Counted from the stretch's first letter, positions 34,560 through 59,222 are shown. The stretch is DNA of 59,697 bases from a virus (IMGVR_UViG_3300032007_000013); one strand, 5' to 3'. The notes: generated from the letters alone by a model not told the origin. Numbers and translations: made by a program.

Positions 34560-35450
34560 AAGAATGGAAACTTTTCTCAGTTTTTCGTTTTCCCGAATTT
34601 AAAATCGTTTTAGAAGGAAAAATGGCCAGACCAAGCCTTGTAACAATTTTGTAACTTTTTTTGGCCGAAACCCACCCCCCGGGTATGAAAGTCAAACGCA
34701 ACTCAGCCGCCAACCGCAACACATCGTACATTTTTATCTCATGATAACGTGCTAAAAGTATTGCCGACCCTCTTGGCGACTGTCTCGAAACCTCAGCCAG
34801 CACCCTCCTATTTGCTCGCCCCGCAAACGCTCAATGCGGGGCGAGTTTCGCGTTGTAACCCTTTCGTAAATTTTTTGCGTAAAATGTTACAAAAATGTAA
34901 CACGCTGTAACATCCTGTAACCAAGAGCACTAAACACACAATTAGTTATCTCGGTTACAAAATGGTTACAAAATGTAGCACTACTGTAACCCTGATGACA
35001 AAATACATGTTTGCCTCTTTCAGCCAGCCAAGAGTTAGCACACACTAACAGTGGTTGACGTGCACTTTAACACGCTAAATCGTTGAAGTGCACAAAACAT
35101 ACGATTGACGCACTCTTTAACACAGTAAAGTATTAAAGACCAAGAGCAACAGACCAAGGCACATGCGGCAAGCAGGCAACGAGCCAAGGCCATCGACCAA
35201 GGCAGAGGCAGAGAGGACGAGCCAAGGACAGCAAGCGATGAGAGAGAGAAGAGAGAGAACAATAAATAAAATAAAAGAATAAATAATAATAAATAAATAA
35301 TAATAATTAAATAATAATAATAGTATAGTATACTACTATGATATGGGTAGGGTAGGGGGTACCCAGGGGGGTGGGGGGAGGGGGTGGGGTACCCACCTAT
35401 AGGGTAGCATGGAGTAGGCAGGTAGGGCAAATAGTTACAAAAGAAAGACA
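34560..35450. other. Non-coding junction (candidate genome terminus, terminal-repeat edge or origin)
   Basis: No credible SD-led ORF. Contains hairpins, TGTWAC repeats, a purine-skewed tract, (AAT)n and G-tracts. Separates the late and early modules. Confidence 0.5.
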
Positions 35451-35612
35451 TTGACAAACCACACAACCTGTGGTATAATAGAAGTGGTGCCTTGCAATAA
35501 GGTAAGCGACGACCTTTGTTAAAAAAATAACAATCTTTTTTATAAAATAACTCTTGACATTTGCCCGGGCATGTGGTATTATAATACCAGAAAGAGAAAA
35601 GGAGATACAACA

Positions 35613-35813
35613 ATGAACCACATCATCTACATCGACAGAACATTCGACAGCAACATGAACACTATCGAGACTCAGTGCAAGAGCAAAGTGTATGGGACTT
35701 TCTCCGCACGTTATCCCAGCGGCGTCAAGAAGATGGCTCGCGTGTGGAATAAAAGACTTAATAAGATGATTGCTATTCGGTTAGACCACGATCTGGTCAG
35801 CATCATTGACTAA
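35613..35813 (+). CDS. Small early protein
   Basis: Own promoter, AAGGAG SD and downstream hairpin. Confidence 0.7.
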   Translation: MNHIIYIDRTFDSNMNTIETQCKSKVYGTFSARYPSGVKKMARVWNKRLNKMIAIRLDHDLVSIID

Positions 35814-35888
35814 TAAGAAAGACTTAAAAGTCTTTCTTTTTTTTATAAAAAACTCTTGACAGATTGGCACATCCATGCTATAATACAA

Positions 35889-35940
35889 TCACAGGTTGAG
35901 GGAAACCACACTCGGGTAGCAGAGGGGAAAGACTAACTAA
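35889..35940 (+). ncRNA. Repeated small RNA candidate, copy 1
   Basis: Promoter at 35856 followed by CACAGGTTGAGGGAAACCACACTCGGGTAGCAGAGGGG with no ORF. Confidence 0.55.
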
Positions 35941-36040
35941 ATAGTAACAAAAGAAAGACAAAAAGTTTCTAAAAATAGTTGTTGACAAATAACATCCTTT
36001 ATGTTATACTACAATCAGAAAGAGACAGGAGGACACAGAG

Positions 36041-36241
36041 ATGCTCGAAACTATCACGATCAGAAGAACAAAGAAGTCAGAAGCAATCATTAATGCTTGC
36101 GTCATGGCTTATGGTTGCTTGATGGTGGAAAAGAAAACGCGTGTTTATCTACACGCCTTTAATGGTGACGGTGTTATCATCGAAGAGATTCTACGTGATG
36201 AACAAGTGAATGTGCTGTCTCGCAAGCCGTTCAGTCTTTAA
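36041..36241 (+). CDS. Small early protein
   Basis: Promoter, AGGAGG SD, terminator. Confidence 0.7.
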   Translation: MLETITIRRTKKSEAIINACVMAYGCLMVEKKTRVYLHAFNGDGVIIEEILRDEQVNVLSRKPFSL

Positions 36242-36366
36242 GAGATAACAGATACAAGAACTTAATTAAAAAAGTTCTTGTATTTTTTTTTGAAAAGGGT
36301 ATTGACAAATCATTTTTCTTGTGCTATACTATAATCACAAAGGGAAGAGAAAAGGAGATAACAAAG

Positions 36367-36675
36367 ATGATTAACATTAGAACGATTAACAAACTCACTG
36401 AGAATGATGGACTTACTCTTAAAAATGGCAAGCCAATCACTTATAAAAGTGGTTGGCAGGTTGCCACCGAGGGCGTGGAGTGCCACACCGCACGGGAAGC
36501 CATCAACGCGGTTAAGGCTTACGCTGGTAACTGCGGGGTGTGGTTCGCTGGTGGTATCTACTACATCGACAAAAGCCACCGCGTAAACACAAAGCGGGAA
36601 GCACTGGAAGTCGGCAGGGCTTGCAATCAGATTTCCGTACTCGGTTGGCGTAAAATGGCTTTAGCGTACTGCTAA
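36367..36675 (+). CDS. Hypothetical early protein
   Basis: SD-corrected start MINIRTINK. Own promoter. Confidence 0.75.
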   Translation: MINIRTINKLTENDGLTLKNGKPITYKSGWQVATEGVECHTAREAINAVKAYAGNCGVWFAGGIYYIDKSHRVNTKREALEVGRACNQISVLGWRKMALAYC

Positions 36676-36890
36676 AGCCATTTTGTTTTATTGGAAACTC
36701 ACAAAGCGGATTTTGCCCGGGCAAAATCGTCAATCCCGAAAGGCCCCGGACTTCACCACGCTAAAGTGGCAAAGTAAAAAACGCGAATGATTGTTAAACA
36801 AATAACAATAAAAAATGTCCCGAAACTACTTGACAACAGGCACAATGTGTGTTATAATACAGTTACCAAAAGGAAAAGAGGCAAATAATC

Positions 36891-37295
36891 ATGATAGTTA
36901 GATTTGCAACACCAGCCGACACTATCCGCATTATTCGGGCTATACAGAATAAACGCATGGACTACAACACGCCGCAAGATGTACGGGAAGATGTGAATGT
37001 GGGGCGGTTGATTGTAGCAGAGGAAAACGGCAAGCTTTTGGGGTCTGTGGCTGTCGTGTATAAAGCCCATCGTGGTTATTATGCTATCATGAGAATGTGC
37101 GTGTATTCCAAAGCCAGCAAGGGAAAAGGTGTAGCAAGTGCGTTAATTGACTACGTGTTAGCTCTTGGCCTTGGCACTTATGGGGCAACGCCTTGGAATG
37201 ACAATCCGGCCATGATTCACATTTTTGTCAAAAGAGGCTTTAAGTATCAATACACATTCAAAAATAAATACGATTTTTATAAAAAAGGGGCTTGA
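36891..37295 (+). CDS. GNAT-family acetyltransferase
   Basis: VRFAT..D, VAEENGKLLG, motif A (KGKGVASALI) and N...F.K.GF. Confidence 0.8.
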   Translation: MIVRFATPADTIRIIRAIQNKRMDYNTPQDVREDVNVGRLIVAEENGKLLGSVAVVYKAHRGYYAIMRMCVYSKASKGKGVASALIDYVLALGLGTYGATPWNDNPAMIHIFVKRGFKYQYTFKNKYDFYKKGA

Positions 37296-37350
37296 CAAAT
37301 TCAAGCCCTTATGTTATAATACAATCACAAAAGGAAAGGAGATCAAAAAA

Positions 37351-38254
37351 ATGTTTAATGTTTATTACATCCGCAATGAGTATGAACTCAACGCTAAATT
37401 TGAGAAAAGAGGAAGTGCTCTTTTATTTGCTCATAATTTTGTATCTATGTTAGGCGGAGATTATGCCGCTGTTACTGATACAGAAACAAATAAAACTATA
37501 CAAATTTATAGCAGATACTAAAAAAGGCTGATACAGCCTTTTTTATTTACATTAAAAAAATTGAAAAAAAGTGCTTGACAAATCGCCCGGGCAGTGCTAT
37601 ACTATAATCACAAAGAGGGAAGGGAAACCCAAACAAACCGGAAAGGAAGAAAAAAATGGAGTTTTACAGCATGGAGCAGTTCGAGATCATGGGCGACCTG
37701 ATGGAAGATTATCAAGAGTGGCTGGACTTTGAAGAGGACATGAAGTCCAATCCTTGGGGCTGAAAAAGCCCCAAGGAAATTAAAAAAAGTGCTTGACAAA
37801 GCAAAAGGCTTATGGTATAATACAATCAGAAAGAAAGAAAAGGAGATAAAAAAAATGTACATCGTAACTGCTTATAAGATTTGGGAAGAGTTTGAAGACT
37901 ACGACAAAGCCGAACTGTACTTCGCCGCTTTGAGACATGGCGGGTATAAGTACGTGGAACTGAAAAAGAAAACCACGACCGATAAATACGAATACTTTGA
38001 AAGTATCAAAATCTTTGTGAAATAATTAAAAAAGGGGCTTGACAAATCAAGCCCTTTATGTTATAATGTAATCACAAAAGAGAAAAGGAGATAAAAAAAT
38101 GAAAGTAATTCAGAACATCGAATGCGGCAACATCTTTCCCTACACCCTTGAGGGATTGATTGAAATGAGAGAAGAAGCCCGCGAACTTTACGATATTGAA
38201 GATCCCACCAATACGGTGAGCATTTCCGAATACTATCAGATAATTACGCTGTAA
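37351..38254 (+). CDS. Four small early ORFs (37351-37521, 37656-37763, 37855-38025, 38099-38254)
   Basis: Each has its own promoter and SD. 37656-37763 is highly acidic. Confidence 0.65.
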
Positions 38255-38315
38255 AAAGCGTAATTTTTTTTTGAAAAAGGGCTTGACAAATCGCCCGGGC
38301 AATGCTATAATACAA

Positions 38316-38368
38316 TCACAGGTTGAAGGAAACCGCACCGGGGCAGTGGAGGGGAGAGACTGACTTAA
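38316..38368 (+). ncRNA. Repeated small RNA candidate, copy 2
   Basis: Promoter at 38283 followed by CACAGGTTGAAGGAAACCGCACCGGGGCAGTGGAGGGG. Confidence 0.55.
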
Positions 38369-38468
38369 TAGTTACAAAAGAATGACAAAAAATTTCTAAA
38401 AAAAACTCTTGACATTTGCCCGGGCTTATGCTACAATACAATCAGAAAGAACAAAGGAGGACAAAAAA

Positions 38469-40955
38469 ATGTTCGACATCAATGTTATCAATGACTGGTA
38501 CGCAGAGCAGGAGTTAAACTGGGAAGAAAACCCGGTTGAGGATTGGCCGGACGATCTGTGGGACGATTAAAAAAGTCCCACAGAAAAATAAAAAAAAAGA
38601 CTTGACAAGCCCGGGCATGTATGCTATAATGTAATCACAAAAGGAAAAGGAGATAAAAAAAATGAACGCTAACGAAATCAAAGAAAGAATTGAAAAGCTG
38701 GAACGCTGGTGCTGGTTTGAGCAGATGGCAGATTTTATGAACTGGACAGCCTACGACAAAGCACAGGCCGAAATCAAAGAACTTAAAAAAAAGTTAGAAG
38801 AAATTGAAAAAAAGGCTTGACAAGCAAAAGCCAATAGTGTATAATGAAATCACAAAAGGAAAGAAAAGGAGAATAAAAAAATGAGTTATTTTATGGGAAA
38901 TGGTCGTGCTGATACCTGCCGCAATGGTGAAGCCTACAAGGGCAAGGCGGTTGAAATGGTGATTGATGTGCTGGAAATCCGCGACGGCTTTGAACTTCGC
39001 AAGGCGAGCGATAGCACCGGAACAGCGGCAAAGTTCCGCATCTTCTGGGATGGTGAGTGCATCAGCACCGTCTACAATGAAAAGGAAGCACGGGCACTGT
39101 TTAACGACTTCGCCCCAGCACCCCAGCGGAAGGCGGGACGCCCTAAGAAGAACGCGGCTTAAAAAGCCGCTTCTTTATCGCCCGGGCAAAAGTTACAAAA
39201 GAAAGACATTGACAAATAGCTAAAAGCATGTTATAATGTAATCACAAAAGAGAAAAGGAGATAAAAAAAATGACTATTTACAAGGTTGCTGCGTACAACA
39301 AATTTGAAGATGAATGGTATTTGGATGGGTACTATGTCCATTATAAAAACGCTAATGCAAGAATGGATGAACTTGATAAACCTTGGACAAATGCCAACGG
39401 CATTGAATTTCATACTGCCACGCTCGAAATAATTGAAACTAAGGATTAAAAATCCTTAGTTTTTTTATTAAAAAATGCTTGACAAAACAAGTCACTTGTG
39501 CTATACTATAATCACAAAAGAGAAAAGGAGATAAAAAAAATGACTTACGAAGAAATGTATGACCTGCTGGCCGATACTCTCGGAATTGATGAAGACGCTC
39601 TCGATCTGGCATTTGCCATTGGCGGATGCAACGAAGAAACCGCCGAAAGAATTTTGTTCTACTACACTGGCTGGCATTCTTTTGAGGGCTGGCTTGGTGA
39701 ACAGGAAGAGGACTGAAAAAGTCCTCTTCCGCCCGGGCGGAAAAGTTACAAAAGAAAAACATTGACAAGTCCAACAGAGTATGCTATAATAAAGGCACAA
39801 AGAAAGAAAAGGAGAATAAAAAATGAAGGTCAAGGAGTTAATCAATGTTCTTAATAACTATAACCCTGATGATGATGTCGAGGTCGTAGGTAATAGTGAT
39901 GGAGCAGTAATCCAGATCGGCAATTATAGGCCCTGCGTTGGCCTTTATGGCAAGAAGTATTTTATCTTTGTTTCAAAGGATGAAATCACCACTTAAAAAA
40001 ATAAAAAAGGGGCTTGACAAAACAAGCCCCGCATGATATAATACAATCACAAAGAAAGAAAAGGAGAAATAAAAATGACTACCTGTGCTGAGTGTCTGTG
40101 CCATGATGAGTGCCCGCTGTATCGCGGTGAAGATACCGACCAATGCTGGTATGAAAAAATCAGAAAAGAAAAGGAGAACAAAGAAAATGAAAAAGTTTGA
40201 AACCAAGATTACCCGCGACAATGCAGAAGTCAAGTGCATTGTGGAAGCTATCGACAAAGACCACGCCGCCCGCCGCTTCTTTGAGATTCTGGGAGAGCAC
40301 GGCCTGAAAATCAAGGAACTGTAAAAAGTTCCTTGACTTTTGCCCGGGCGATTTACCTCAAAAATTTTAAGTAAAAAAATTAAAAAAGGGGCTTGACAAA
40401 TGCCCGAGCTTGTGCTATTATAATACCAGAAAGAGCAAAGGAGATAAAAAAAATGAACATGAATGAGAAAATTAAGGAACTGGAAGCCAAAGGATATAGC
40501 AAGCATGACTATGAAGTAAATGAAGCTGCTGACAGTGGATGGATTATCACAGTTTATACCAGTCTGTGGAGTTTTGAAGAATATCTGTATGATACAGATG
40601 GAAATCCCATTGAAGCAACAGAAATCAATCTGTATGGCAAGCCCCAAAAAATTTATTAAATTGGGGCTTGACAAATAAAACAAAGCATGTTATAATAAAT
40701 ACAGAAAGAAAGAAAAGGAGAAATAAAAAAATGATTATTGAAAAAATTGAGATCGGCAAAATCTGGGAAGGTGGATTTAACGATTATCATTTCCAATGCC
40801 GCCCTGCTGGAAGCACAGAACCTTTTGATGTTGGGACAATGTACTTTGAAGACTTTGAAGCGTGGAGAGAAGGCGTAACCACCATTGAAAAAATGAAAGA
40901 TGTCCTTTTCCCCGAGGTCTATAAAATGTTAAAAGAAATGAAAAAAAGGGCTTGA
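38469..40955 (+). CDS. Ten small early ORFs (38469-38570, 38662-38820, 38881-39162, 39270-39449, 39540-39716, 39823-39996, 40075-40200, 40187-40324, 40453-40659, 40731-40955)
   Basis: SD-led ORFs, nearly all behind individual promoters. Several are strongly acidic or Cys-rich. Confidence 0.65.
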
Positions 40956-40984
40956 CAAGTTCAAGCCCTTATGTTATAATGTAA

Positions 40985-41037
40985 TCACAGGTTGAGGGAA
41001 ACCGCACTCGGGCAGAAGAGGGGAAGGACTGACTTTA
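40985..41037 (+). ncRNA. Repeated small RNA candidate, copy 3
   Basis: Promoter at 40952 followed by CACAGGTTGAGGGAAACCGCACTCGGGCAGAAGAGGGG. Confidence 0.55.
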
Positions 41038-41139
41038 AGTTACAAAATAGTAACAAATAGTTCCAAAAGAAAGTTGTTGACATAATACAGTTGACATGCT
41101 ATAATGATACCAGAAGTTAGGAAAGAGAGGAAATAAAAA

Positions 41140-41220
41140 ATGTATCAGACCGCTATTGCCGCCGCCCTTGTTGTTATCTTTGCCGTAGCACTTGCCGCAA
41201 TTTATTTAAGAAATTTATAA
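41140..41220 (+). CDS. 26-aa hydrophobic membrane peptide
   Basis: MYQTAIAAALVVIFAVALAAIYLRNL, with promoter and SD. Confidence 0.55.
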   Translation: MYQTAIAAALVVIFAVALAAIYLRNL

Positions 41221-41293
41221 AAAAGGGCTTGACAAGCCCGGGCATGTATGCTATAATGTAATCACAAAAGGAAAAGAAAAGGAGATAAAAAAA

Positions 41294-41515
41294 ATGGAAA
41301 AGAAATTCATTTATGACGTTGCGGGCTACACCTTTGAAGATACCGAAGCCTTTGGCAAGGCTTGGAAGGCCGCAAAGGAAAAGGCCACCGCTCTCCACTG
41401 TGCGATTTATCGCACTGTCCGCAAAGGTGAGACGGAACGCCGGGAAGTGTTCTTCAAGGCTGGGTGCTTCAACAATGTGGAGTATGCCACTGTCCACGAA
41501 GTGATGATTTTCTGA
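41294..41515 (+). CDS. Small early protein, paralog of 47812-48030
   Basis: Shared KKF.Y.VAG...AFG.AWK.A..KAT.LH..IYR...GCF. Confidence 0.75.
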   Translation: MEKKFIYDVAGYTFEDTEAFGKAWKAAKEKATALHCAIYRTVRKGETERREVFFKAGCFNNVEYATVHEVMIF

Positions 41516-41613
41516 GGGATAAAAAATCCCTCAGAAAATTAAAAAAAAGTATTGACAAGTAAAACAGATTATGCTATAATACAGACAGAAAGAAAGAAAA
41601 GGAGAATAAAACA

Positions 41614-42769
41614 ATGAAAGTTAAAATGAATCAACTAACCTACCACGCAAAAGAAGAGAGACGCGACAGACGCGAAATCGTCAAACAAGTAGGAATTGGC
41701 AGACCTATCGCACAGGTTAAGAAATTCAGTGATAACGACAGAGAAAAAACTGAAATGCTCACTGATACAGGCTTGATTGTGGTGATGGGTGATGATAACA
41801 AGATTATTACTTTGTATCTCGCAAGCACCGCAAAAGCGGCGGCAGTTTATAAGTCAGCCCATGGGGCAAATGCAATGATGCCTGTACAAATCTTTGAACA
41901 AATCAAAATCAATCGTATCATGTTCCCCGCTGATTAAAGCGGGGAATTGATTTTTATAAAAAAAAATGATATAATAAATTATAAAATAAAATAAAGGAGG
42001 CCGAAAAAGTTATGGATTTAATGCTTGCCCGGGCACTTTTAGCAATCGCAAAATATTGTGCTTCTTGTGATGATTGTGATAAATGTGTTTTACGCGATTT
42101 CTGCGGGAAAATGCCATTAGAGTGGTAATTAACGCGGCGACCGTACCCAATCGGGGCGGTTCGAACTTTCGCACGGTAAAGCGTTGAAGAATTTTTCGGC
42201 CATTGAGTCGGGCAAAACTTTTAATACTTTTTGCCCGAAACCTATTGACAAATAAATACATTTGTGTTATATTATAATTGTTCCAAGAGAGAACAACAAA
42301 AATAAAAAAGGAGAATACAACAATGTATAATGTGCGATTTGTTGACACTGTCCATGGCGAAATCGAGGAAAATTTCGAGACCTATGACGAAGCGATGGAA
42401 TACTGGAATGACTATGCGGATACCGAGTCTTGCGTGGCTGGTGTTCTGATGGATTTGGATAACTGCGAAATTCTTTGGAATTTTGACGATAGGGAGGCAG
42501 AATAAATGAAAAAGATTCTTGCTTTTATCCTTGTCTTTGTTCTTGTTCTGTCTCTTGCTGGATCAGCATGGGCTGATTTTAACATGAGCCTATTTGACAC
42601 AAAGTATAGTTTTAATTATGCTTATGTGGGTTTGCCTAATGGTAAAACGATCGAGGGCGAAGTCAAGAACTGGAAAGACTGGGATGATTCGGACATGTTG
42701 CAGGTAACTTTTGTAGACGGCTCAACCTATTATACCCATTCGTCTAACATTGTACTGATTTCAAAATAA
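41614..42769 (+). CDS. Four early ORFs (41614-41937, Cys-rich 42012-42128, acidic 42323-42505, signal-peptide-bearing 42506-42769)
   Basis: SD-led ORFs. The last begins MKKILAFILVFVLVLSLAGSAWA. Confidence 0.65.
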
Positions 42770-42842
42770 TAATAAAAAAGGGCTTGACAAACAAGCCCTT
42801 TTGTGCTATTATAATACCAGAAAGAGAAAAGGAGATAAAAAA

Positions 42843-43307
42843 ATGACTACTTACAGAGAACACCTCATCGACCGCATGACTCACATTTATGGACTTGAAA
42901 ATCCTATTGTGATTGAGTTTTGCCGCTACTGCGAAGACTGGGCCGATAATGATTGGAATAACAAAATGCTAAAGTGGCTTGTAGACGCCCATGCAGAAAA
43001 CCCCGTCTTTGAGGAAGATTAAAAATCTTCCTCAATCGCCCGGGCGGAAAAGTTACAAAAGAAAAACATTGACAAGTAAAGCAAAATGTGGTATTATAAT
43101 ACCAGAAAAGGAAAGGGGAATAAAAAAATGACTATTTACAGAGAACATCTTGTTGACCGCTTGACTCGTATTTATGGCCCCAAAAACCCCATCGTGATTG
43201 AGTTTTGCGGCTACTGTGAGCGCTGGGCGGACAGTGAAAAGAATGATATGTTGTTAGCCTTGTACGTAGAAACCGAGGGGAGATATCCCGCGATTAAGAA
43301 AGATTAA
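42843..43307 (+). CDS. Tandem paralog pair (42843-43022, 43128-43307)
   Basis: Both read MT.YREHL.DR.T.IYG..NPIVIEFC.YCE.WAD, each with its own promoter and a trailing GCCCGGGC. Confidence 0.8.
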
Positions 43308-43411
43308 GTATCTTTCTTAATCGCCCGGGCGGAAAAGTTACAAAAGAAAGACATTGACAAATAAATCATGATGTGCTATAATAAAGGCACAAAAAGAAAA
43401 GGAGAAAAACA

Positions 43412-50221: not shown

Positions 50222-50336
50222 GCCCCTTAAATGGGGCTTAAAAGCCCGGGCACTCTTCCCCATTTTTGTGCATTTTGCCTAATTGACAAATTCCAAAAGT
50301 AAGAGTATAATGAGGGTACAGAAAGGGGATAGAGCA

Positions 50337-51169
50337 ATGGACAAAGAAAAGCAGATTTTGAACTACATGCAGAAACTCGGTCTTACTCGTAAAGAGGCTG
50401 AACAACTCTATAAAGACGAAGAGGAAGACAATCTTCCCGAACTGACCGCAGACCAGAAGAAAGTGGAAAAAGAAATGCGGCAGGCTGACCGCAAAAAGGA
50501 AACCACTCCACGCAAGCGGGAACGCAAACCCGATGAAGATAAAATTGCGATTATCCAGCAAATCATGCTTGCATTACAGCATGATGTAGATGGACAAACT
50601 ATCACTGTTGTAAATCCTGAGCGAGAAATTGAATTTGACTTTTTAAGTAATCATTATCGCCTTGTGCTGATGAAACCAAGAAAGGAAAAAGAAAAATGAA
50701 AGTTGTTGAAGTAGGTAAAAAAGCCAGAGAAGTGCCGCTTTCTTCTCTGAAATTAGGGGATACGTTCATTTTTGATTCGAGAATTGGCATGGTTGCTTCC
50801 CGCAATGGACATGATTTTCCACTAGATTTAGTTTTCGGTCGAGAATTTTGTTTGCCCTTTGAGGGAAGAGAATGGATACCCCATGACCAGCCCGCTATGC
50901 TCTCTCCTTCTACAATGGTAACCCCTGTTGATTGCGAATTACAGTATCGGCTTAAATATTAAGCCGATACATTATTTAACAAATAAAAAAAGTTAACATA
51001 ATAAAGTTTTCATTTCATTATTGACAAAGCCATTTTCTTATGTTATAATTAAGATGTTCCAAAAGGAAATGAATTTTTGAAAGGAGTTTTTGAAATGACC
51101 ATTTGGCTATGGGGAATTGCGGGCGGAGTTGTTGTTATCCTTCTCTACATGTGGCTGGGCGATAAGTAA
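50337..51169 (+). CDS. Three ORFs (50337-50699, 50696-50962, membrane peptide 51095-51169)
   Basis: SD-led. The first two overlap by ATGA. Confidence 0.65.
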
Positions 51170-51263
51170 GCCCAGCCTAACCGCCCGGGCAATTTGTTAA
51201 GAAATTATCAAATGATTTTTTGAAATACCCTCTTGACATTCTCTAAATCATTTGCTATAATAT

Positions 51264-51437
51264 AATTGTTCCAAGGGAAAGCGAAGAGAAGCGAGAAGCC
51301 CATAGAAGCCGGCGAGATGGGTGATGCAGTCGCCATACCACTACCCTATGGGATCAAGGGGGATTCTCTTGAATCGCGAGTCAAGCGGAGAGAGGGAAGA
51401 ATGTTCCCGCCGATAAAAAGAAACCCCCTTGTTTTTT
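51264..51437 (+). ncRNA. Structured ncRNA candidate
   Basis: Promoter at 51233. Stems CCCATAG/CTATGGG and CAAGGGGG/CCCCCTTG followed by a T-run. No ORF. Confidence 0.45.
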
Positions 51438-51513
51438 GAAATGAAATTCAAAATGCCCTCTTGACAAATCCTAAAAAGTATGCTATAATGTAAATGTAAG
51501 TAAGAAATGATAT

Positions 51514-51600
51514 GCGTGGGTGCTGGAACTGGTATACAGATTGGTCTTAAAAACCAATGCCCAAATGGGATTGGGGGTTCAAATCCCCTCCCACGCACCA
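51514..51600 (+). tRNA. tRNA-Leu (anticodon UAA)
   Basis: Acceptor stem GCGTGGG/CCCACGC plus ACCA. Anticodon arm TTGGT-CTTAAAA-ACCAA, long variable arm, GTTCAAATC T-loop. Own promoter at 51461. Confidence 0.95.
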
Positions 51601-51691
51601 ATTTAAAAAGGTAGACAAATTTTTTGGCAGACTAAATTAATAAATTAAAAATAATTTTCATAATAAAATAGAAAAGGATGTGATTTTTATT

Positions 51692-52189
51692 ATGAAAAAA
51701 TATACAAAAGAATGGTTAACTGAATTATGTCAATCAAGCTATTCGTATGCTGAAGTTTTAGCAAAAGCTGGTAGAAAACCAGGTGGTGGGAATCAACAAA
51801 CATTAAAGACAAAAATTCAAGAATTTGGCATTGATATTTCTCATTTCACTGGCCAACGATGGTATGATTCACCAAATCAAAATGCTGAAACATTACATAA
51901 AAGTCATGAAAAATATACTTTAAAAGAAGTATTTACAGAAAATAGCCCTGTAACACAAAAAATATTACGAGGCTATATTGAAAGACACAATTTATTAGAA
52001 TATAAATGTGAAAAATGTGGTTGTAATGGGGAATGGCAGGGTGGAATTATTTCATTAGAATTAGACCATGTAAATGGAAATAATACTGATAATAGATTAA
52101 GCAATTTACGATATTTATGTCCCAACTGCCACGCTTTAACTGATACCTATCGAGGGAAAAATAAAGCCCTCAAAAATCAAAATAGATAA
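51692..52189 (+). CDS. HNH endonuclease (putative homing)
   Basis: CEKCG...LELDHVNGNNTDNRLSNLRYLCPNCH. AT-rich, directly after the tRNA. Confidence 0.9.
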   Translation: MKKYTKEWLTELCQSSYSYAEVLAKAGRKPGGGNQQTLKTKIQEFGIDISHFTGQRWYDSPNQNAETLHKSHEKYTLKEVFTENSPVTQKILRGYIERHNLLEYKCEKCGCNGEWQGGIISLELDHVNGNNTDNRLSNLRYLCPNCHALTDTYRGKNKALKNQNR

Positions 52190-52439
52190 CCTCCTATCTC
52201 CTTTCTTTCTCTCCTTTCTCTTTTTGTACGGTTCCTACCCTATGGGTAGGAATTGTGCCCGGGCGAAAGATTGTGAAATAAATAACTTTTGAAAAAGGTA
52301 TTGACTTTTAGAGAAAAAAGAGTATAATAATAATTGTCAAGAGGAAGGATATAGCCCAAAAAAATAAATGACCGCGTGGGTGTTTCGTGCGGGATATAAA
52401 AACTCTTGATATAAAAATAATGTAAAAGGTGACAAAAAA

Positions 52440-53728
52440 ATGAACATTATTGGTGGAATCTGGCTTATGACGACAGTTTTGGTTTTCTCTTTATTTACTT
52501 CTGTATTTCTTACAGCCAAGGAGAAGTTCAAAACAAAGCATCCAACAGCAAAAATAGAAAAGAGTCTATTTGGAGAAAAAATCTACGGGTATGTAATGGT
52601 TTTTGTTATCATAACTGTACCGATTTTTCATCTTCTTGCTTTATTCATCTTAGCTACTCAGTATGATGATATCGTAGAAGGTACGATTTCTAAAATAGAA
52701 AATAAAATTATTTCAGAGGAATAAGGACTATTTTATTAGTCCTTATTCTTTTTTGGTTGAAAATTTTAAAAAAAAATTATATAATTATTATAGAAAATTA
52801 AAGAAAAGGAATTGGTAAAAAATGATTGTTACTATTAAAGACCAGAAGAAAGAATTTAACGCTCACATTGATAATCTTGTGGCAAAGTGCCCGGGCGATA
52901 AGACTAAGGCTGAACTTTTTCATGAGTTTATGGCTAATGAAATGTTTAATTGCTCTGTTGATGAGAACTATTTTTATGAATTTACTCTTGCTTTTGAAGA
53001 GTTTCTGTATTTTGCTTATCGAATGGATCCTACGAATTTTAAGTATTTTGATTTAGATAGATTTTATTTTTGATTTCCTATTGACAAATGTCTTTCAAGA
53101 TGTTATACTATGATTGTCAGGAGGGATATTGATGGAACTAAAAGAAATGATTCAAAAACTTGCCAATGCACTTGATAAAGAAAGTGATTATTGGTGTAAT
53201 TTTGCGGTAGCGAATACCACCAATCCGAATAAAATGATGTATGGTGCGGCGGTTGGCCGAGGAGCAACATACACTGAGGTTGTAATGCTGCTTAAGTTTA
53301 TCCTTAATAATGATACCGATAAATTTGAAGATTTTCTGGCTTCTTATAACGATATTAAAGAAAAAATATCAGGAATTAAATGAAAGGAGACAATAAAAAT
53401 GGATATTAGAAACATGCCTGCCAAAGCGGCTTATTATGAATTTGTCGTAGCGATTCCTAATGCTGACCATTATACTTTTCTCGGTATGTATGCCGATGGG
53501 CACCAGGCCGAAAGAACCGCTCTTGAATACGGTGGAATTGTGATCCACAATGTGCGGATTCACGGCTATCAGCCGCCTAAGCGTGAAAAAAAGTATTATA
53601 TTTTTAGTGGCTCTTGGTCTTGGGGATGCTGGGCTACTGACGTAGAAGATGCTGAAAGACAATTCTCTGAAGCCTATGATGAAGAGATAGATATTGACTA
53701 TAAGCATGAAATTGAGGTAGATGAATAA
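52440..53728 (+). CDS. Four ORFs (membrane 52440-52724, 52822-53073, 53132-53383, 53399-53728)
   Basis: SD-led ORFs from the supplied track, with starts adjusted. Confidence 0.65.
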
Positions 53729-53821
53729 TCTACCTCGATTGCCCGGGCGCGCGTTCACAAAAAGTTCATAATTTTTCGGCAAATACCTGTTGACATTCGC
53801 GCGCCTATCTGCTATACTATA

Positions 53822-54022
53822 ATTGTTCCAAGGGAAACGCACAAAATACCTTGTGAACAGTGAGGATTAGCAAAACATGTGACTCAAAAACTCACTATAA
53901 TAAAGAAGAGAAAAATGTTAACTTTGGCACGCTTCCCATCTTTGGTGCTTGTTTGAATTGAGAAACAAGGGGATTAGGATGGCGCTTGGGCGAGGTTAAG
54001 TGCGTAACGCTCGCCCAACGCG
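53822..54022 (+). ncRNA. Structured ncRNA candidate
   Basis: Promoter at 53789. Stems AGTGAG/CTCACT, CTTGTTT/AAACAAG and TTGGGCGAG/CTCGCCCAA. Confidence 0.45.
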
Positions 54023-54103
54023 AGAAATTTTATAAAAAAGACTTGACAACATCCAAAAGGTATGCTACAATAAATACAGAAATAAGGAAAAGGAGAAAGT
54101 AAA

Positions 54104-54334
54104 ATGAAAAGAATGAATTATAAGGAAGTTTGCGTTTCTATCCAGTGCCCTTTCTGCGGCAGAGGGCATGAGGTCGAAGTCAATGAGATTGATTATCTCA
54201 ATTGGGAAGATGGCACGCTCGCACAGGATGCTTTCCCCTATCTGTCTGCCACTGAGCGTGAGCAGTTAATTAGTCACCTGTGCCCCGCTTGTCAGGGTGG
54301 CATTTTCTTTGGAACTACTGGTGAGGAGGAATAA
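54104..54334 (+). CDS. Small Zn-finger protein
   Basis: CPFCG...QDAFPYLS..ERE.LIS..CPACQ. Confidence 0.75.
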   Translation: MKRMNYKEVCVSIQCPFCGRGHEVEVNEIDYLNWEDGTLAQDAFPYLSATEREQLISHLCPACQGGIFFGTTGEEE

Positions 54335-54336
54335 AA

Positions 54337-54606
54337 ATGAAAACAACTGGAATTGTGCGGCGTGTGGATGACCTTGGGCGTATTGTTATCCCCAAAGAGA
54401 TTCGGCGGGCTCTCCACATTAAAGAGGGCGACCCCCTTGAAATCTATGTTGATGATAACATGGTGTGCTTTAAGAATTATAAGTATCAGGCCGTTGAAGA
54501 TGCTTTTCAGCAAGTCCTTAATGCTTCTGCTGATTTGATTAACACTGAACAGCGTGATGCTATTATGGCACACATTAACGCTATCCGTCAGTTGGTATTT
54601 GAATAA
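54337..54606 (+). CDS. AbrB/SpoVT-family transcription regulator
   Basis: MKTTGIVRRVDDLGRIVIPKEIRR.L.I.EGDPLEIYV is the canonical AbrB/SpoVT N-domain. Confidence 0.9.
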   Translation: MKTTGIVRRVDDLGRIVIPKEIRRALHIKEGDPLEIYVDDNMVCFKNYKYQAVEDAFQQVLNASADLINTEQRDAIMAHINAIRQLVFE

Positions 54607-54711
54607 GCCGAGAGTTAATCTCGGCTAACCGCCCGGGCGGATTGTTAACAACTTAACAATCTTTTTTTGAAATAGTTATTGACAAATGCTATCTGCTATG
54701 CTATACTATAA

Positions 54712-55068
54712 TTGTTCCAAGGGAAAGGGAAGTGGTACCCCCTGAGTAACGGAAGAACTGGACAGCAAGCTTTCAGTGGTTAGGACTGTCAAGTACAAAA
54801 AAATTTCGGACTGATGACTTTTGAAGTATCGTTTTACCAAGTGACGAGAGATAGTTTCAAAGAAAACTGTCTACAAGTGAATTGGGTGACCTTTAGTTTT
54901 ATGGTTAAAGGTGGGTATTCCTTGGGGTGACAGGTTTTGGTTTCCAAAAAAGGAAAACGAAAATAGACAGGAACCCTAAAAAATCCAAAAAAGTTTTGTC
55001 AGAGGGAAGAATTATGAGGCATTAGTAGTAAGTCCTCCGAAAGGGTTTAACCGCCCTCTGACAAAATT
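54712..55068 (+). ncRNA. Structured ncRNA candidate (~350 nt)
   Basis: Promoter at 54679. Serial hairpins, ending in a 13-bp stem TTTTGTCAGAGGG/CCCTCTGACAAAA. No SD-led ORF. Confidence 0.5.
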
Positions 55069-55143
55069 TCAAAAAGCTCTTGACAAGCATTACATCATGT
55101 GTTATAATAAATCCAGAAGATGAAAAGAAAAGGAGATTTCAAA

Positions 55144-55452
55144 ATGAGAGTACACATTGAACACTTTGCCAGTTCTTACAGCATTACTTTCCACTCTGAT
55201 GAAAGTGAGTATGATGTTGAGAACTTCAGTTCTCTGGATGCGGCACTTGCCTATGCTGAGGAAGAGATTGACGTGCGGTGTCAGGCCACTTTCGCCACCA
55301 TCTGGGATAGCAACACCGGTGAAGTTTATGCTTCTTGCTCTTGGGATGATGAGTCCATCCCCGAAGAAGACTATGGAGCATGGGATGACTGGAACTATAA
55401 TGAGGATGAGGGCTTTGACCCCTACCTTGGCGAGTATACTTGGGACTGCTGA
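55144..55452 (+). CDS. Highly acidic small protein
   Basis: D/E-rich, ends GFDPYLGEYTWDC. Confidence 0.75.
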   Translation: MRVHIEHFASSYSITFHSDESEYDVENFSSLDAALAYAEEEIDVRCQATFATIWDSNTGEVYASCSWDDESIPEEDYGAWDDWNYNEDEGFDPYLGEYTWDC

Positions 55453-55643
55453 AAAACAGCCCCAGATTTTTTTATAGTTCCAAAGAATTCCAGTGAGCCC
55501 GGGCAAAAAGATTGTTAAAGAAATAACTTTCTCATCGTGAGAAAAAAATCTTGACAAATTTAATCAGATGTGTTATTATAATAATGCCAAGAGGAAAGGA
55601 CCTCTTGATAGAAAATAAAAAAATATAAAGGAGTAAAAAAATT

Positions 55644-56539
55644 ATGATGATGGTGTTTGGTGTGTGCGATAATGCTATTGATGCTTACCGTATGATGGAG
55701 TATGCGATGGAACTGATTGCTGCGTATAGCGGCGGCATTGACATCTATGATGATGATGACGACGATTGGAGATGCGGCACCTGAGTTCGATGTGGGGCAA
55801 TTACTTCAAAAACTTGAGGTAATTTGCCCGGGCGGATTGTTAAAGAAATAACTTTCAAAAAAAGTATTGACTAATGCTATATAATGTGGTATTATAATAA
55901 TGCCAAGAGGGAAGGAGATAAAAAGATGGATTATGTGTATTTAATCTGGGAAGATGTTGATAATTGGGCCGAGGATGGTGGCGGCACTTATCTTGTTAGC
56001 ATTTATGCTAATAAAGAAGATGCTGATAAAGAATGCAGAAAACTCAACGAAAATCGTCCTGCGAAAAATGTTGAGTATTTTGTAGATAAAGGAGCTGTAA
56101 AATAATGGAACTTATTTGCCCCTATTGTATTAAGCCCCTTGAATGGGATGATACGATAGATTATGATATTGGCATTGACTATGCTGATACTAAGGATACA
56201 GGCCATTGCCCTCAGTGTAATAGACACTTTCACTGGTATACACATTTTGTATTTTCTCGTTATGAAGACTTGACAGAAGACTAAACCTGTGCTATAATAA
56301 ATACAGAAAATAAGAAAGGAAGTAAAAAAATGGCGATTGTAATTGGACTTTTGATTGGGTACGCTATCAGTTTTCTTGCTAATGCTGGCCTTGTGTGGCT
56401 GCTGTGCTGGGGTCTGAAAGCAGTTGGTATCACCACTATCGGTGGTTGGACTGTGGCTTTTAGCTGGCCGCTGGTGTTGATTTTCACCGTTGCCTACATA
56501 ATTCTTCATGGCATCTTCGGTGGACACAATAAGAAGTAA
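55644..56539 (+). CDS. Small ORFs (55644-55784, 55926-56105, membrane 56330-56539)
   Basis: SD-led and promoter-linked. Confidence 0.6.
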
Positions 56540-56551
56540 GGAGGAACAATT

Positions 56552-56770
56552 ATGAAAGATAAGATTACTTATAGTATTGTTGAGGAAATCGCTGTTCTCT
56601 CTGTCCGTGGTAATTGGGCCCTTGAACTTAACCGCGTGGCATGGAATGGCGGCCCACCCAAGTATGATATCCGCTCATGGGATGTAGACCACACCAGAAT
56701 GGGCAAGGGCGTTACCCTCAATGATGATGAGATGGAGGCCCTGCTCGATGCAATGGCGGCAAGGAACTAA
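56552..56770 (+). CDS. YdbC/PC4-like ssDNA-binding protein
   Basis: W.LELN.V.WNG.PPKYDIR.W..DH..MGKGVTL..EE-like signature. Confidence 0.85.
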   Translation: MKDKITYSIVEEIAVLSVRGNWALELNRVAWNGGPPKYDIRSWDVDHTRMGKGVTLNDDEMEALLDAMAARN

Positions 56771-56885
56771 CCTTGCCCAATCGCCCGGGCAGCTTGTTAA
56801 ATAAATAACTATTAAAAAAGATATTGACAAATTTAATTAAGTATAGTATTATAATAATACCAAAAGAAAAGGAGAATAAAAAAAA

Positions 56886-57607
56886 ATGGATTGGAAAGAA
56901 AAAATTGCGGCAGGAATGAAAATGATTATAAAAGGGTGCGACCAGGAAGGTCTTCATTATGGCTGTAAAGGGTGCCCTTTTGACTCTATCTGTGATACCA
57001 TTTTAAAAGATGAGGAAAGCAAGTATTCTACTCCCGATTGTTGGGAAGAAGAAGGAATTTTCAAAACCCCTCTTGACACATTGTAAATCTTGTATTATAC
57101 TAATACCAGAAAAGAAAAGGAGATAAAACAATGAATCTCAAAAATATGACTATGGAAGAGCTTTGCCAGATGAAAACCGAACTCTATGATGAAATAGAAC
57201 GTCGTGTTAAAGCAGAGGAGCAAGCGGCCATCAAAGAATTTATAGAGGCTTTCACTAAATTGGCTGAAATGGCAGTAACTGTCACTTATGAAGATTATGA
57301 TGATACCTATACCTTAATAAACCCTGACAGATTCCATTTCACATCTCTTTAACCCTTTTAGGGTTAAAGCCCGGGCACCGAAAAGGGGCTTGACAAGATG
57401 TAAAAGATGTGCTATAATTAAATCACAAAAAAGAAAGGGAGAATAAAAATGATTACTTATACTGAGACTGAACTTAAAACTTGGTTCTTGAAAGAGGTAC
57501 AAAAGTATCCTCATTCTAACACTGAACAGCATTTGAAAGCGGTGTTTCATTTGATGTTTAATGAGGATGTAAAAGATAATTTGAAAAAAGTGCTTGACAA
57601 GGAATAA
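56886..57607 (+). CDS. Three small ORFs (56886-57086, 57131-57352, 57449-57607)
   Basis: SD-led and promoter-linked. Confidence 0.6.
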
Positions 57608-57654
57608 AAAGTGTGCTATAATAAAAGCACAAAGAACGAAAGGGGAACTTAAAA

Positions 57655-57804
57655 ATGGAAAACTTCGATAAAAGAATGTTGAAGAAATCTCCTGAAGAGC
57701 TTCAACAATATCTCGCTTTCCGCCGCAAGGCTGGTCGCGTGCCCGCTAAAAAGGGCAAGGGCGCGAAATATAATCGTAATGATTTCAAGAAAGAGGTGGC
57801 GTAG
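57655..57804 (+). CDS. Basic 49-aa peptide with ArfA-like KKGKG..YNR motif (ends at TAG; readthrough extends it to 57831)
   Basis: MENFDKRMLKKSPEELQQYLAFRRKAGRVPAKKGKGAKYNRNDFKKEVA. Own promoter at 57594. Confidence 0.55.
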   Translation: MENFDKRMLKKSPEELQQYLAFRRKAGRVPAKKGKGAKYNRNDFKKEVA

Positions 57805-57805
57805 G

Positions 57806-58826
57806 ATGAAGAGTCCAAGATGGCAGATTGAATACCACTGGATAAACGATGAGGGCATTTGTGAGACTTATCGTTATAGCCATGTCTTTACTAATCTTGA
57901 TGCCGCTGTCAAGGCTTATGAGGATTATGTAAGACTTGAAGGCGGTGGATGGTATGACCTGATTGAGATTACTGAAAAAGTAATTTCTCTTTAAGAAAGG
58001 AAATAAAAATGTATAATGAATTACCTTTTTATATCCTATGGGGGAAATATTATAATCCTGTTTTAGATGCCTATACTGAAAAAATGTTAGGCTGTTATAG
58101 GGAAGAGAGTAATGCCAACAGAATGGCTAATACTCTGCGAAAAATGAAACCTGTATGTGAATACTTTGTTTCTACTGAATTTTTCTGTGATTAAGAGGGC
58201 GCAAAGCCCTCTTTTTTGCCCGGGCGCATGTTCACAAAAAATTCATAAATTGTCTATTGACATTCTCTTAATCCAGTAGTATAATACAATTACCAAAAGG
58301 AAAGGAAATAAAGAAAATGGATGAACAGCTTATAAGAGATTGCCTGCGGATGTTACGAGATCGCAAAAATTATTACCAAAATACTATTAAAAATGGCAAA
58401 AGTCTTAATCTTGATGCTGACTATGCCGCGGCTGGGGCTTATAGTTCTGCCGCAACTATGTTAGAATATGCTATTAAGAAAGATAAAGAAATTCTTGCTC
58501 AATTTGATTACTACAAAGAAAATTAAGGAAAGGAAGTAAAAAAAATGAATGAAATGTCTAAATTGATTGCCCTACTTGAAAACGCGCATGTCCCTTATGA
58601 AACTCGTCCGCATTGGAGTGGTAGTATTCAGGTTGGTTATCCCAATTTTGAAAATACTATTTGTGATGTTATCTATTTTCCTGGCAGTTATGGCTATGGA
58701 CAGGGACTGCTGGAAATTATGGGCCTTGTTGATGAGGAAGAAGTTGGAGAAGGCGTTGAAGGTTATCTGACCGCAGTTGAAGTTTTTCAGCGCATCTTCA
58801 AACATTATAGATACGGCACGATTTAA
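57806..58826 (+). CDS. Four small ORFs (57806-57994, 58009-58194, 58317-58526, 58545-58826)
   Basis: SD-led ORFs. Confidence 0.65.
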
Positions 58827-59222
58827 GCCTTACGGGGCTTAATCGCCCGGGCGGATTGTTAAATAAATAATTATTAAAAAACCTATTGACTTTTTAGAAA
58901 AAGAGAGTATAATAATAATTGTCAAGGGGAGAAAGAAAACAACCTCTCTCAGGCACATAACCTGATGTAAGTAAAATCAAATCTCTTCAAAAAAATAAAA
59001 AAACCCCTTGACAAATTGCCCTCTCTATGATATGATGTAAGTACAGTAAAGGAAGAGGACAGAGGCATCAAGAACGGTTCAAAAAAAAGATAAAAACCCT
59101 CTTGACAATTCGCTCAACCTATGCTATAATAAGTATGTAAGGTAAAGGAAAAGAAACGGAGCCTTGTCCTACTAAAAGGCTTTAGAATCTGGTAGGTAAA
59201 TCTTTTGAAAGAGGTAGATACT

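Follow-up and report, generated by a model that had tools for sequence, protein, structure and literature searches.

Candidate Rex- and HisR-type operators repeated across the early region of a TAG-recoded phage

In the SPO1 host-takeover module and the promoter-early stem-loop cassettes of T4, dense, strong host-type early promoters each serve a small gene, with stem-loops in between. The phage early array analyzed here resembles both in layout; we know of no description of arrays of host repressor operators in either system. The virulent Bacillus phages phi29 and Nf carry boxes for the host global regulator Spo0A at their early promoters, which tie phage development to the physiological state of the host (PMC2731898). 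As in these phages, candidate sites for host regulators lie at early promoters of a phage whose host is probably Gram-positive. In contrast, the candidate regulators here, Rex and HisR, are metabolite sensors, and the sites number about 10-20 per genome, with many in promoterless arrays and the operator types mixed. Rex senses NADH/NAD+, and HisR is the histidine repressor of Firmicutes.

On the chromosomes of Clostridia and other Gram-positive bacteria, the reported Rex operators (ROP) share with the phage boxes an 18-bp inverted repeat, T/G degeneracy and an A/T-rich 4-bp spacer, but lie in promoter regions of redox-metabolism genes (PMC5367854, PMC9600882, PMC2883068). The phage boxes are instead found either upstream of consensus promoters or at a distance from any promoter. 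The clostridial consensus is TTGTTAANNNNTTAACAA (PMC5367854, PMC9600882), and that of S. aureus is TTGTGAA-W4-TTCACAA (PMC2883068). Operators of Firmicutes HisR, a TrpR-family protein, follow the consensus cacTTTAnnnnnnTAAAgtg (PMC9413887), that is CACTTTA-N6-TAAAGTG, a 20-bp palindrome whose TTTA-N6-TAAA core is flanked by cac and gtg. Relatives of the phage contain perfect matches to it. Unlike those operators, the phage boxes, including those in the window, have conserved inner six bases, which the published consensus does not demand, often lack gtg in the right flank and form arrays before histidine-unrelated genes.

Early promoter cassettes and their repeated boxes

The window is the whole stretch of 59,697 nucleotides that was analyzed (IMGVR_UViG_3300032007_000013), of which 34-59.7 kb represent the early-gene module of a TAG-recoded phage; relatives, retrieved with the phage sigma factor as anchor, are contigs of ~120-190 kb. 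The early region is laid out as ~65 single-gene cassettes on the same strand. A consensus sigma-A promoter drives each cassette, and downstream of it comes either a small ORF preceded by a strong ribosome-binding site or a non-coding leader. Boxes occupy the DNA that separates gene ends from -35 hexamers, or two gene-free islands (34.6-35.45 kb and 48.8-49.1 kb). Here and below, features listed without a strand have none assigned.

32771..33829, minus strand: phage sigma factor, first gene of the TAG-recoded late strand and retrieval anchor
33938..34201, plus strand: AbrB/MazE-type DNA-binding protein, 87 aa, beside the island
35451..59130, plus strand: 65 near-consensus sigma-A promoters, all on this strand (TTGACA, 17-nt spacer, TATAAT, mostly with a TG extension)
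54337..54606, plus strand: second AbrB/MazE-type DNA-binding protein, 89 aa, directly upstream of the perfect Rex-type box
35563..59697: palindrome GCCCGGGC, 33 copies

The earlier note had described at least four repeated box classes in early intergenic DNA, and all four were recovered at the positions described, in excess of AT-matched background. Compared with 500 dinucleotide shuffles of early intergenic DNA (10.0 kb, GC 36%), Rex-type matches comprised 1 perfect and 4 at up to one mismatch (0.00 and 0.01 expected), HisR-type matches 5 at up to two mismatches (0.09 expected) and TGTWAH-N5-TGTWAH 7 perfect copies (0.08 expected). The ARG 18-mer yielded 1 perfect match and 2 at up to one mismatch (0.00 and 0.05 expected); the shuffle expectation takes no account of paralogous copies, and several ARG-like near-matches lie within three copies of one ~110-nt element. 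None of the 500 shuffles attained the observed counts at these thresholds, and all box classes also exceeded shuffles of the whole early region. The late region (33.8 kb) contained no perfect or one-mismatch matches, or two-mismatch matches for the HisR type, except a single one-mismatch ARG 18-mer; at looser mismatch levels, box matches do appear there.

The phage Rex-type consensus is TTGTTAA-N4-TTAACAA, an 18-bp, 7-4-7 dyad. Scored against the Rex operator pattern TTGT(T/G)AA-N4-TT(A/C)ACAA, the window holds one perfect and three one-mismatch boxes, and the right half is degenerate in most copies.

35516..35533: one mismatch, 20 bp before the -35 at 35554
36791..36808: one mismatch, 21 bp before the -35 at 36830 of a GNAT acetyltransferase gene
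51194..51211: one mismatch, 3 bp downstream of GCCCGGGC and 21 bp upstream of the -35 at 51233
52271..52288: degenerate, left half good; 12 bp upstream of the -35 at 52301
54642..54659: perfect (14/14 positions), 3 bp downstream of GCCCGGGC and 19 bp upstream of the -35 at 54679
55512..55529: degenerate, 21 bp before the -35 at 55551
55837..55854: degenerate, 12 bp before the -35 at 55867
56794..56811: two mismatches, 12 bp before the -35 at 56824
58856..58873: degenerate, 12 bp before the -35 at 58886

At characterized Rex-repressed promoters, the Rex site generally lies over or adjoins the core promoter. In the phage, the distance from the end of a Rex-type box to the -35 is 12 or 19-21 bp, and other boxes are over 120 bp away from any promoter. 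This placement, upstream of a UP-like tract and not over the core promoter, fits poorly with simple repression.

The HisR-type dyads are degenerate in the window, matching cacTTTA-N6-TAAAgtg at 12 of 14 positions at best.

35063..35132: first gene-free island, two dyads (35063-35082 and 35113-35132)
36749..36768: dyad upstream of the -35 at 36830 (61 bp) and of the Rex-type box (22 bp)
42164..42183: degenerate dyad 61 bp before the -35 at 42245
48883..49038: second gene-free island, cluster of four dyads (48883, 48915, 48971, 49019) upstream of the promoter at 49115

The remaining repeats are as follows.

34639..34990: TGTAAC/GTTACA repeats (WalR-like class), direct and inverted, in the first island
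41039..41055: GTTAC-N6-GTAAC palindrome before the promoter at 41077
49072-49088: second copy of this palindrome, with one mismatch in the left arm
46388..46427: ARG-box-like tandem pair with a 22-bp period, ending 30 bp before the -35 at 46458 of an NT5C-like gene
46205..46330 (plus strand), 48045-48160 and 48785-48900: three copies of a paralogous ~110-nt element
35434..44593, plus strand: 17-nt box GTTACAAAAGAAAGACA, eight copies
53754..53771, plus strand: TTCA direct-repeat box after GCCCGGGC, with a second copy at 58231-58248

The TGTAAC repeats are spaced 10-11 bp apart, in helical phase, and TGTWAH-N5-TGTWAH recurs with the 11-bp period of WalR/OmpR repeats, albeit as a degenerate consensus with hexamers in both orientations. 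G-rich and A/T-only tracts lie near these phased island repeats. ARG boxes (ArgR/AhrC) usually come as a tandem pair; the 18-bp ARG consensus WNTGAATWWWWATTCANW is matched perfectly by the second box of the ARG-like pair, at this single locus. Most ARG-like near-matches are located inside the three ~110-nt elements, each of which has a GC hairpin with compensatory changes, and a T-run, at its end. The A-rich 17-nt box takes the place of the proximal UP subsite, abutting the -35 hexamer in six of its eight copies (35434, 39192, 39745, 43052, 43337, 44577) and lying 21 bp upstream of it in the other two (35944, 38371). All 33 copies of GCCCGGGC fall in the early region (0.19 expected) and none in the late region; 11 are inside promoter spacers and most of the others are sandwiched directly between a gene-end hairpin and a box that follows.

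Box conservation in relatives and other phages

The phage Rex-type consensus is identical to the published clostridial Rex operator. Four relative genomes each carry 7-14 Rex-type sites at up to one mismatch, many of them perfect and all but one in early regions, as compared to 0-1 matches for a reversed-pattern control. Among 100 distinct sites collected from the window and 91 loci, the 4-bp spacer is A/T-rich, as in Rex operators; 13 of the sites are followed by a -35 after 19-21 bp, and for 54 any promoter is more than 120 bp away. One-mismatch variants in relatives are mostly T-to-G/C changes in the left half or A-to-C/G changes in the right half, including the classical TTGTGAA/TTCACAA, and T/G (A/C) variation is tolerated at the fifth position of each half, again as in Rex operators.

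In IMG/VR, tandem perfect Rex-type pairs occur in 48 stretches for the T form and 18 for the G form, versus 2 and 0 for permuted, composition-matched palindromes. One carrier unrelated to the clade is a phi29-like phage with a protein-primed polymerase and SSB, a cultured relative of which lacks the Rex-type box; further carriers are a 47-55 kb group at GC 46% and one GC 65% contig, set apart by size and base composition only. HisR-type dyads give 20, 18 and 14 exact pattern matches in three relatives, each set confined to one 8-12 kb block, with no control matches; some of the copies in relatives are perfect 14/14 sites.

The other classes are conserved more narrowly. The 17-nt box and TGTAAC repeats are largely restricted to close relatives, the latter being present only in the closest ones (L004, L006 and L081) and not clade-wide. 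The ARG-like pair is absent before five related NT5C-like genes (49-55% identical), and ARG matches in four relative genomes are few, with none in the early region.

The earlier note had proposed a mosaic of operators for four regulators. Its likening of one class to Rex sites proved exact and robust, from the published consensus, clade-wide occurrence and fixed promoter spacing to unrelated phages and near-empty permuted controls. The TrpR-like (HisR) likeness holds at the clade level (14/14 matches, 14-20 copies in relatives), but less well for the window's own copies. The repeats read as WalR/OmpR-type sites are real, but match only a loose, degenerate consensus and are limited to the closest relatives, and the ArgR/AhrC likeness comes down to one tandem pair with one perfect box, at a locus that is not conserved. 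Of the proposed mosaic on early DNA, two host-regulator operator types, Rex and HisR, are plausible.

Candidate binders and competing explanations

That the boxes exist, are enriched and conserved, and where they are placed, is observed; what binds them and to what effect is inferred. Our best explanation as a whole, to which we give about an even chance, is that the phage is virulent and TAG-recoded and infects Bacillota of the gut or rumen, that its early region is a host-takeover-like module, that the repeated boxes there are protein-docking sites maintained by selection, and that those of Rex and HisR type are sites for host regulators, which the phage would probably read or soak up. The absence of a cognate regulator from the window, as claimed previously, holds among the 30 largest early ORFs scanned, of ~65; most of these were assigned no family, and Pfam would miss a novel fold. 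A search for the Rex wHTH (PF06971) in four relative genomes gave no matches, no TrpR/HisR protein (PF01371) exceeded the cut-off in five, and a conserved XRE HTH looked for in the relatives' genomes was not found; host proteins are therefore favored as binders, and the most likely candidates for the Rex- and HisR-type families would be host regulators absent from the phage.

A possible, though less probable, alternative is that all boxes are operators of phage-encoded early proteins, serving temporal control or early shut-off, and that their host likeness reflects convergence on easy A/T-rich dyads. The ~65 small early ORFs are mostly without a family, and the window encodes a PC4-like protein in addition to the two AbrB/MazE-type binders. 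Moreover, relatives differ in array type at the homologous island (TGTAAC repeats in the window, Rex-type or HisR-type arrays in relatives), as expected if phage binders co-vary with their sites, and in a metagenome-assembled genome (MAG) a CI-like repressor gene (HTH and S24 peptidase), probably of a prophage, lies beside very similar palindromes. However, in those parts of the relatives that were fetched, genes of AbrB type and Rex-type arrays are not found together, and the missing Rex, TrpR and conserved XRE-like genes likewise count against this alternative. Two independent box families match two published host consensus sequences exactly, and the Rex-type dyad is arrayed in both its T and G forms in unrelated phage groups, where permuted controls are nearly absent. 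For the 17-nt box, TGTAAC repeats and GCCCGGGC, no host site offers a convincing counterpart; their binders, and that of the ARG-like pair, may be phage proteins.

It is unlikely that the main role of the gene-free islands is that of a replication origin or packaging/injection-control region with the repeats as iterons. The islands sit at the late/early strand divergence, where the GC skew flips sign, but this change is uninformative on replication, as it coincides with the coding-strand switch. The helical phasing with its neighboring G-rich and A/T-only tracts, and the 54 Rex-type sites distant from promoters, would fit such a role; on the other hand, the same boxes recur at fixed distances from many promoters across ~23 kb, and within the window the islands have no replication or packaging gene as a neighbor. 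Least probable is that the boxes have no specific binder and are relics of duplicated promoter-terminator cassettes and A/T-rich UP-element DNA: although the cassettes are clearly paralogous (common leaders and ribosome-binding sites, tandem genes at 42843 and 43128), the ARG-like near-matches belong to copies of one element and the 17-nt box fills an UP subsite, perfect dyads are kept in relatives at 58-73% sigma-factor identity, where box flanks and island are unalignable, and the Rex-type box keeps a fixed distance, clear of the UP-like tract, and is also found in unrelated phages.

At a subset of promoters, the Rex-type box ends 12 or 19-21 bp ahead of the -35, directly before the A/T-rich UP-like tract. 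If host regulators do dock at the Rex- and HisR-type boxes, a dimer bound at this position could tune polymerase recruitment by host redox state. The copy number of the promoterless island arrays would rise with genome replication beyond that of the few chromosomal sites, and the arrays could pull Rex- and HisR-type repressors off host regulons. More tentatively, a widespread gut/rumen phage clade and some unrelated phages may carry libraries of host repressor operators (Rex, HisR and, in some lineages, response-regulator-type repeats) that would gate early promoters by redox and amino-acid state and act as post-replication decoys. Repressors would then be stripped from the chromosome, and fermentation, NAD+ regeneration and histidine supply derepressed for the phage.

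Rex-type sites in candidate host genomes

Rex is encoded in two out of five MAGs holding clade contigs, for which binning is unreliable; G007 and G009, both holding such contigs, encode Rex as well as a TrpR-family protein. The host link is weak because the bins span inconsistent taxa. Rex-type density per kb is far higher in the phage than in the two MAGs checked, with 1 site in 2.2 Mb and 9 in 1.5 Mb; the 1.5-Mb MAG contains only 3 HisR-type matches. In one Rex-encoding MAG, perfect Rex-type sites precede an operon of a class-V aminotransferase and an NAD-dependent dehydrogenase, and a class-V aminotransferase is reported as a Rex regulon member (PMC6391272).

Repeated boxes of the early region

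Late genes occupy positions 1-33829 on the minus strand (GC ~30%), with the phage sigma factor as their first gene and portal, large terminase and a virion protein among their products. Their ORFs are open only if TAG counts as sense, a recoding described for late genes of gut phages (bioRxiv 10.1101/2021.08.26.457843). From ~34 kb to the end of the window, GC is 35-46% and the genes lie on the plus strand, using the standard code. Scanning with up to two mismatches to TTGACA/TATAAT revealed 65 plus-strand promoters between 35451 and 59102, nearly all with a 17-nt spacer, versus 2 matches in the late half under the same criterion. In a tool scan of the last 20 kb, 26 promoters were perfect (12/12) and 46 matched at least 11/12, all on the plus strand. 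Early promoters lead into a strong ribosome-binding site and a small ORF (~65 in total, 26-165 aa) or into a non-coding leader. A megablast search of cultured phages with 11.6 kb of early sequence returned no match.

Genes and repeated boxes referred to in the text
33938-34201 and 54337-54606: two AbrB/MazE-type DNA binders
34252-34545: DUF488 protein (early)
36891-37295: GNAT acetyltransferase (early)
46519-46926 and 49787-50221: two NT5C-like 5'-nucleotidase paralogues (early)
56552-56770: PC4-like single-strand DNA-binding protein (early)
nine promoters, 35516 to 58856: Rex-type boxes resembling TTGTTAA-N4-TTAACAA
35063, 35113, 36749 and 42164, plus four copies in 48883-49038: HisR-type 20-bp dyads (CACTTTA-N6-TAAAGTG)
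~46.2-46.4 kb and 48.1-48.8 kb: ARG-like boxes
34639-34990: TGTAAC/GTTACA repeats spaced by 10-11 bp
six -35 hexamers: each abutted by a 17-nt box, counted in one class with the TGTAAC/GTTACA repeats

The earlier note had described four classes of repeated operator-like boxes here, and this description holds, as all four exceed the shuffled intergenic background. None of the 500 shuffles reached the observed counts, and shuffling the whole early region gave an outcome in agreement.

Box counts against 500 dinucleotide shuffles of 10.0 kb of early intergenic DNA (expectations ignore paralogy; several ARG-like near-matches lie in three copies of one ~110-nt element)
Rex-type, perfect / up to 1 mismatch: observed 1 / 4, expected 0.00 / 0.01
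HisR-type, up to 2 mismatches: observed 5, expected 0.09
ARG 18-mer, perfect / up to 1 mismatch: observed 1 / 2, expected 0.00 / 0.05
TGTWAH-N5-TGTWAH, perfect: observed 7, expected 0.08

A GC hairpin with compensatory changes closes each copy of the ~110-nt element. The late region, proposed earlier as background, was empty at stringent levels except for one ARG 18-mer with one mismatch, but gave matches at looser levels. The Rex-type signal is confined to two or fewer mismatches and to the early region; with three mismatches, the pattern is not enriched over the whole window (34 versus 30.9 expected).

Rex-type boxes end 19-21 bp (five promoters) or 12 bp (four promoters) upstream of the -35 hexamer, with an A/T-rich, UP-element-like tract in between. 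Seven of them start 3-7 bp after a copy of the palindrome GCCCGGGC, which itself follows the end hairpin of the upstream gene. This palindrome occurs 33 times in the early region (35563-59697; 0.19 expected), and the late region lacks it. Of the HisR-type boxes, two are placed exactly 61 bp upstream of a -35 hexamer and the others are clustered in two gene-free islands; about two thirds of the 65 promoters carry none of these boxes.

Several smaller regularities accompany the boxes. Eleven of the 33 GCCCGGGC copies fall within promoter spacers, and most of the remainder separate a gene-end hairpin that has no T-run from the next box; the palindrome is conserved in part of the clade (loci L004, L021, L037, L051 and L056) and absent from other members. 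A TTGTGCA/TGCACAA family, sometimes forming a 17-bp palindrome, lies 10 bp upstream of two -35 hexamers (49706, 50266) and recurs in many relatives (18700-18800 of L006; L056; L063). TTCA direct repeats are present at 53754 and 58231.

Distribution among related and unrelated phages

We retrieved 80 related viral contigs carrying the sigma factor, the longer ones spanning ~120-190 kb; the dense promoter array beside the sigma gene is also found in longer related loci. Rex-type sites were counted in four relative genomes, of which three are at least 96% complete.

The likeness to Rex sites proposed earlier was confirmed: the dyad TTGTTAA-N4-TTAACAA is identical to the published clostridial consensus (PMC5367854, PMC9600882) and is a clade-wide element. 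With at most one mismatch, the four genomes hold 7-14 sites each, all but one in early regions, while the reversed pattern gives 0-1. One-mismatch variants are mostly T-to-G/C in the left half or A-to-C/G in the right half and include TTGTGAA/TTCACAA, the form seen in the classical motif TTGTGAA-W4-TTCACAA (PMC2883068). Across the window and 91 loci we counted 100 distinct sites. Thirteen end 19-21 bp upstream of a -35 hexamer, whereas for 54 the nearest promoter is more than 120 bp away; these 54 are often grouped into arrays of 3-5 perfect copies in the sigma-adjacent island. One relative carries about seven tandem copies upstream of an NT5C-like gene (49-55% identical to those of the window).

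Tandem perfect Rex-type pairs occur in 48 IMG/VR stretches in the T form and 18 in the G form, compared with 2 and 0 for two composition-matched permuted palindromes. Among the carriers is a phi29-like phage unrelated to the clade (L100), which has a protein-primed polymerase and a single-strand DNA-binding protein. Judging by size and base composition, a 47-55 kb group (GC 46%) and a contig of 65% GC also look like unrelated carriers. A relative of L100, Clostridium phage CS229P2 (host C. symbiosum), was considered as a cultured model and set aside, its genome having no Rex-type box within two mismatches.

The HisR-type dyad is likewise clade-wide, but weak in the window. The TrpR-like resemblance is good among the relatives, two of which (L025, L107) contain perfect 14/14 copies of the Firmicutes HisR consensus cacTTTAnnnnnnTAAAgtg (PMC9413887), and is poorer in the window, whose best copies match 12 of 14 positions. 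Exact ACTTTA-N6-TAAAG matches number 20, 18 and 14 in three relatives, each set within one block of 8-12 kb; a control pattern gave none. A 1.5-Mb bacterial metagenome-assembled genome (MAG) holds 3 such matches, two of them on its phage contig.

The ARG-like and TGTAAC classes are weaker. The ArgR/AhrC likeness rests on one good pair at 46388-46427 (a perfect 18-mer and a neighbour at a 22-bp period) that is not conserved, being missing upstream of five related NT5C-like genes; the four relative genomes contain 1-5 ARG-type matches each, none in the early region, and we rejected ARG boxes as a clade feature. Of the proposed OmpR/WalR-type repeats, the enrichment in the window survives; however, the TGTAAC repeats and the 17-nt box match a degenerate consensus in both orientations and are shared with the closest relatives only (L004, L006, L081). 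Perfect TGTWAH repeats are no commoner than control in the four relative genomes, and WalR-type repeats were rejected as a clade feature as well.

Island families vary between relatives: where the window and its closest kin have TGTAAC repeats, others have Rex-type or HisR-type arrays at that position. Genome G001 has 14 Rex-type sites and 1 HisR-type site; G010 has 20 HisR-type matches, and its 16-kb sigma-adjacent locus (L025) a single Rex-type site. The first island of the window (34660-35430) begins with a CCGAAAC...CCCCCC motif and also contains CCAAGG-type repeats, a pure A/T tract and a G-rich tract (35340-35420); a similar motif (CCCGAAA...CCCCCC) stands at the inspected island starts of four relatives (L004, L013, L022, L065).

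Candidate binders and hosts

The most likely reading, which we hold with middling confidence from sequence, is that host regulators dock at the Rex-type and HisR-type boxes. A six-frame profile search of the relatives' genomes found neither a Rex winged helix nor any TrpR/HisR family protein or conserved XRE-type HTH; two weak matches to the TrpR model were traced to a GIY-YIG endonuclease and to a DUF6291 protein whose HTH is generic. Two MAGs that include clade contigs (Acutalibacteraceae, Oscillospiraceae) encode both Rex and TrpR-family proteins. In one of them, perfect Rex-type sites precede an ECF transporter component and an operon of a class-V aminotransferase and a 2-hydroxyacid dehydrogenase, in line with a class-V aminotransferase being a reported Rex regulon member (PMC6391272). 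Phages of this uncultured clade carry, in ~25 kb of early DNA, more sites of the Rex or HisR type than either MAG checked has in its entire genome.

It is less likely that phage proteins instead bind all box families. A CI-like repressor gene adjoins very similar palindromes in the MAG with the operon-linked sites, so these palindromes could serve a phage repressor as well, and the window itself encodes two AbrB/MazE-type DNA binders and the PC4-like protein. The AbrB-type genes, however, do not track Rex-type arrays among relatives, and for want of this co-occurrence we rejected their products as Rex-type box binders.

Under docking by host regulators, promoter-coupled boxes would modulate a consensus promoter rather than block it, because they sit just outside the UP-like tract. 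Promoterless arrays would outnumber chromosomal sites once the genome replicates and could titrate repressors. Host-regulator boxes on lytic phages are known chiefly as the Spo0A boxes of phi29 and Nf, the nearest precedent for those of the window (PMC2731898); full-text literature searches turned up no description of Rex operators in phages. Should the boxes indeed be bound by host Rex and HisR, virulent phages of anaerobes would read or rewire central redox and amino-acid regulation through DNA alone, without a phage-encoded regulator. This would be a simple, testable mechanism of metabolic takeover, and the operator dialect would help in guessing which hosts uncultured phages infect.

Searching bacterial contigs yielded only MAG bins of discordant taxa (Erysipelotrichaceae, Methanosphaera, Bacteroidales, Alphaproteobacteria and others). 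Because these bins are taxonomically inconsistent and span unrelated phyla, we assign no host and regard the link from MAGs to the true host as weak. The clade contigs L081-L091 were assigned to MAGs from widely differing phyla, an archaeon among them, probably through binning error.

Other elements of the window

The late minus-strand ORF at 4545-15836 (3763 aa) contains 148 in-frame TAGs. The window holds no suppressor tRNA; its sole tRNA, Leu(UAA) at 51514-51600, is also the only Rfam match at gathering thresholds. It is directly followed, within the early array, by a low-GC HNH endonuclease gene (51692-52189) that looks like a mobile insertion.

At 48250-48792 lies a GC-rich stretch of ~500 nt (55-60% GC) that has a promoter of its own and finishes in a terminator-like structure. 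It contains no ribosome-binding-site-led ORF of at least 60 aa and no Rfam match at gathering score, and is a candidate for a large structured RNA. Conserved leaders of ~90 nt, lacking a ribosome-binding site, follow four promoters (35856, 38283, 40952, 44441), each with the next promoter ~125 bp beyond; they are small RNA candidates, and a further copy lies upstream of an NT5C-like gene in locus L162. At many promoters between 37283 and 45060, the -35 hexamer is held within a GC hairpin (for example, 40009-40030) that reads on the minus strand as a canonical terminator with a T-run, so that minus-strand terminators overlap plus-strand promoters.
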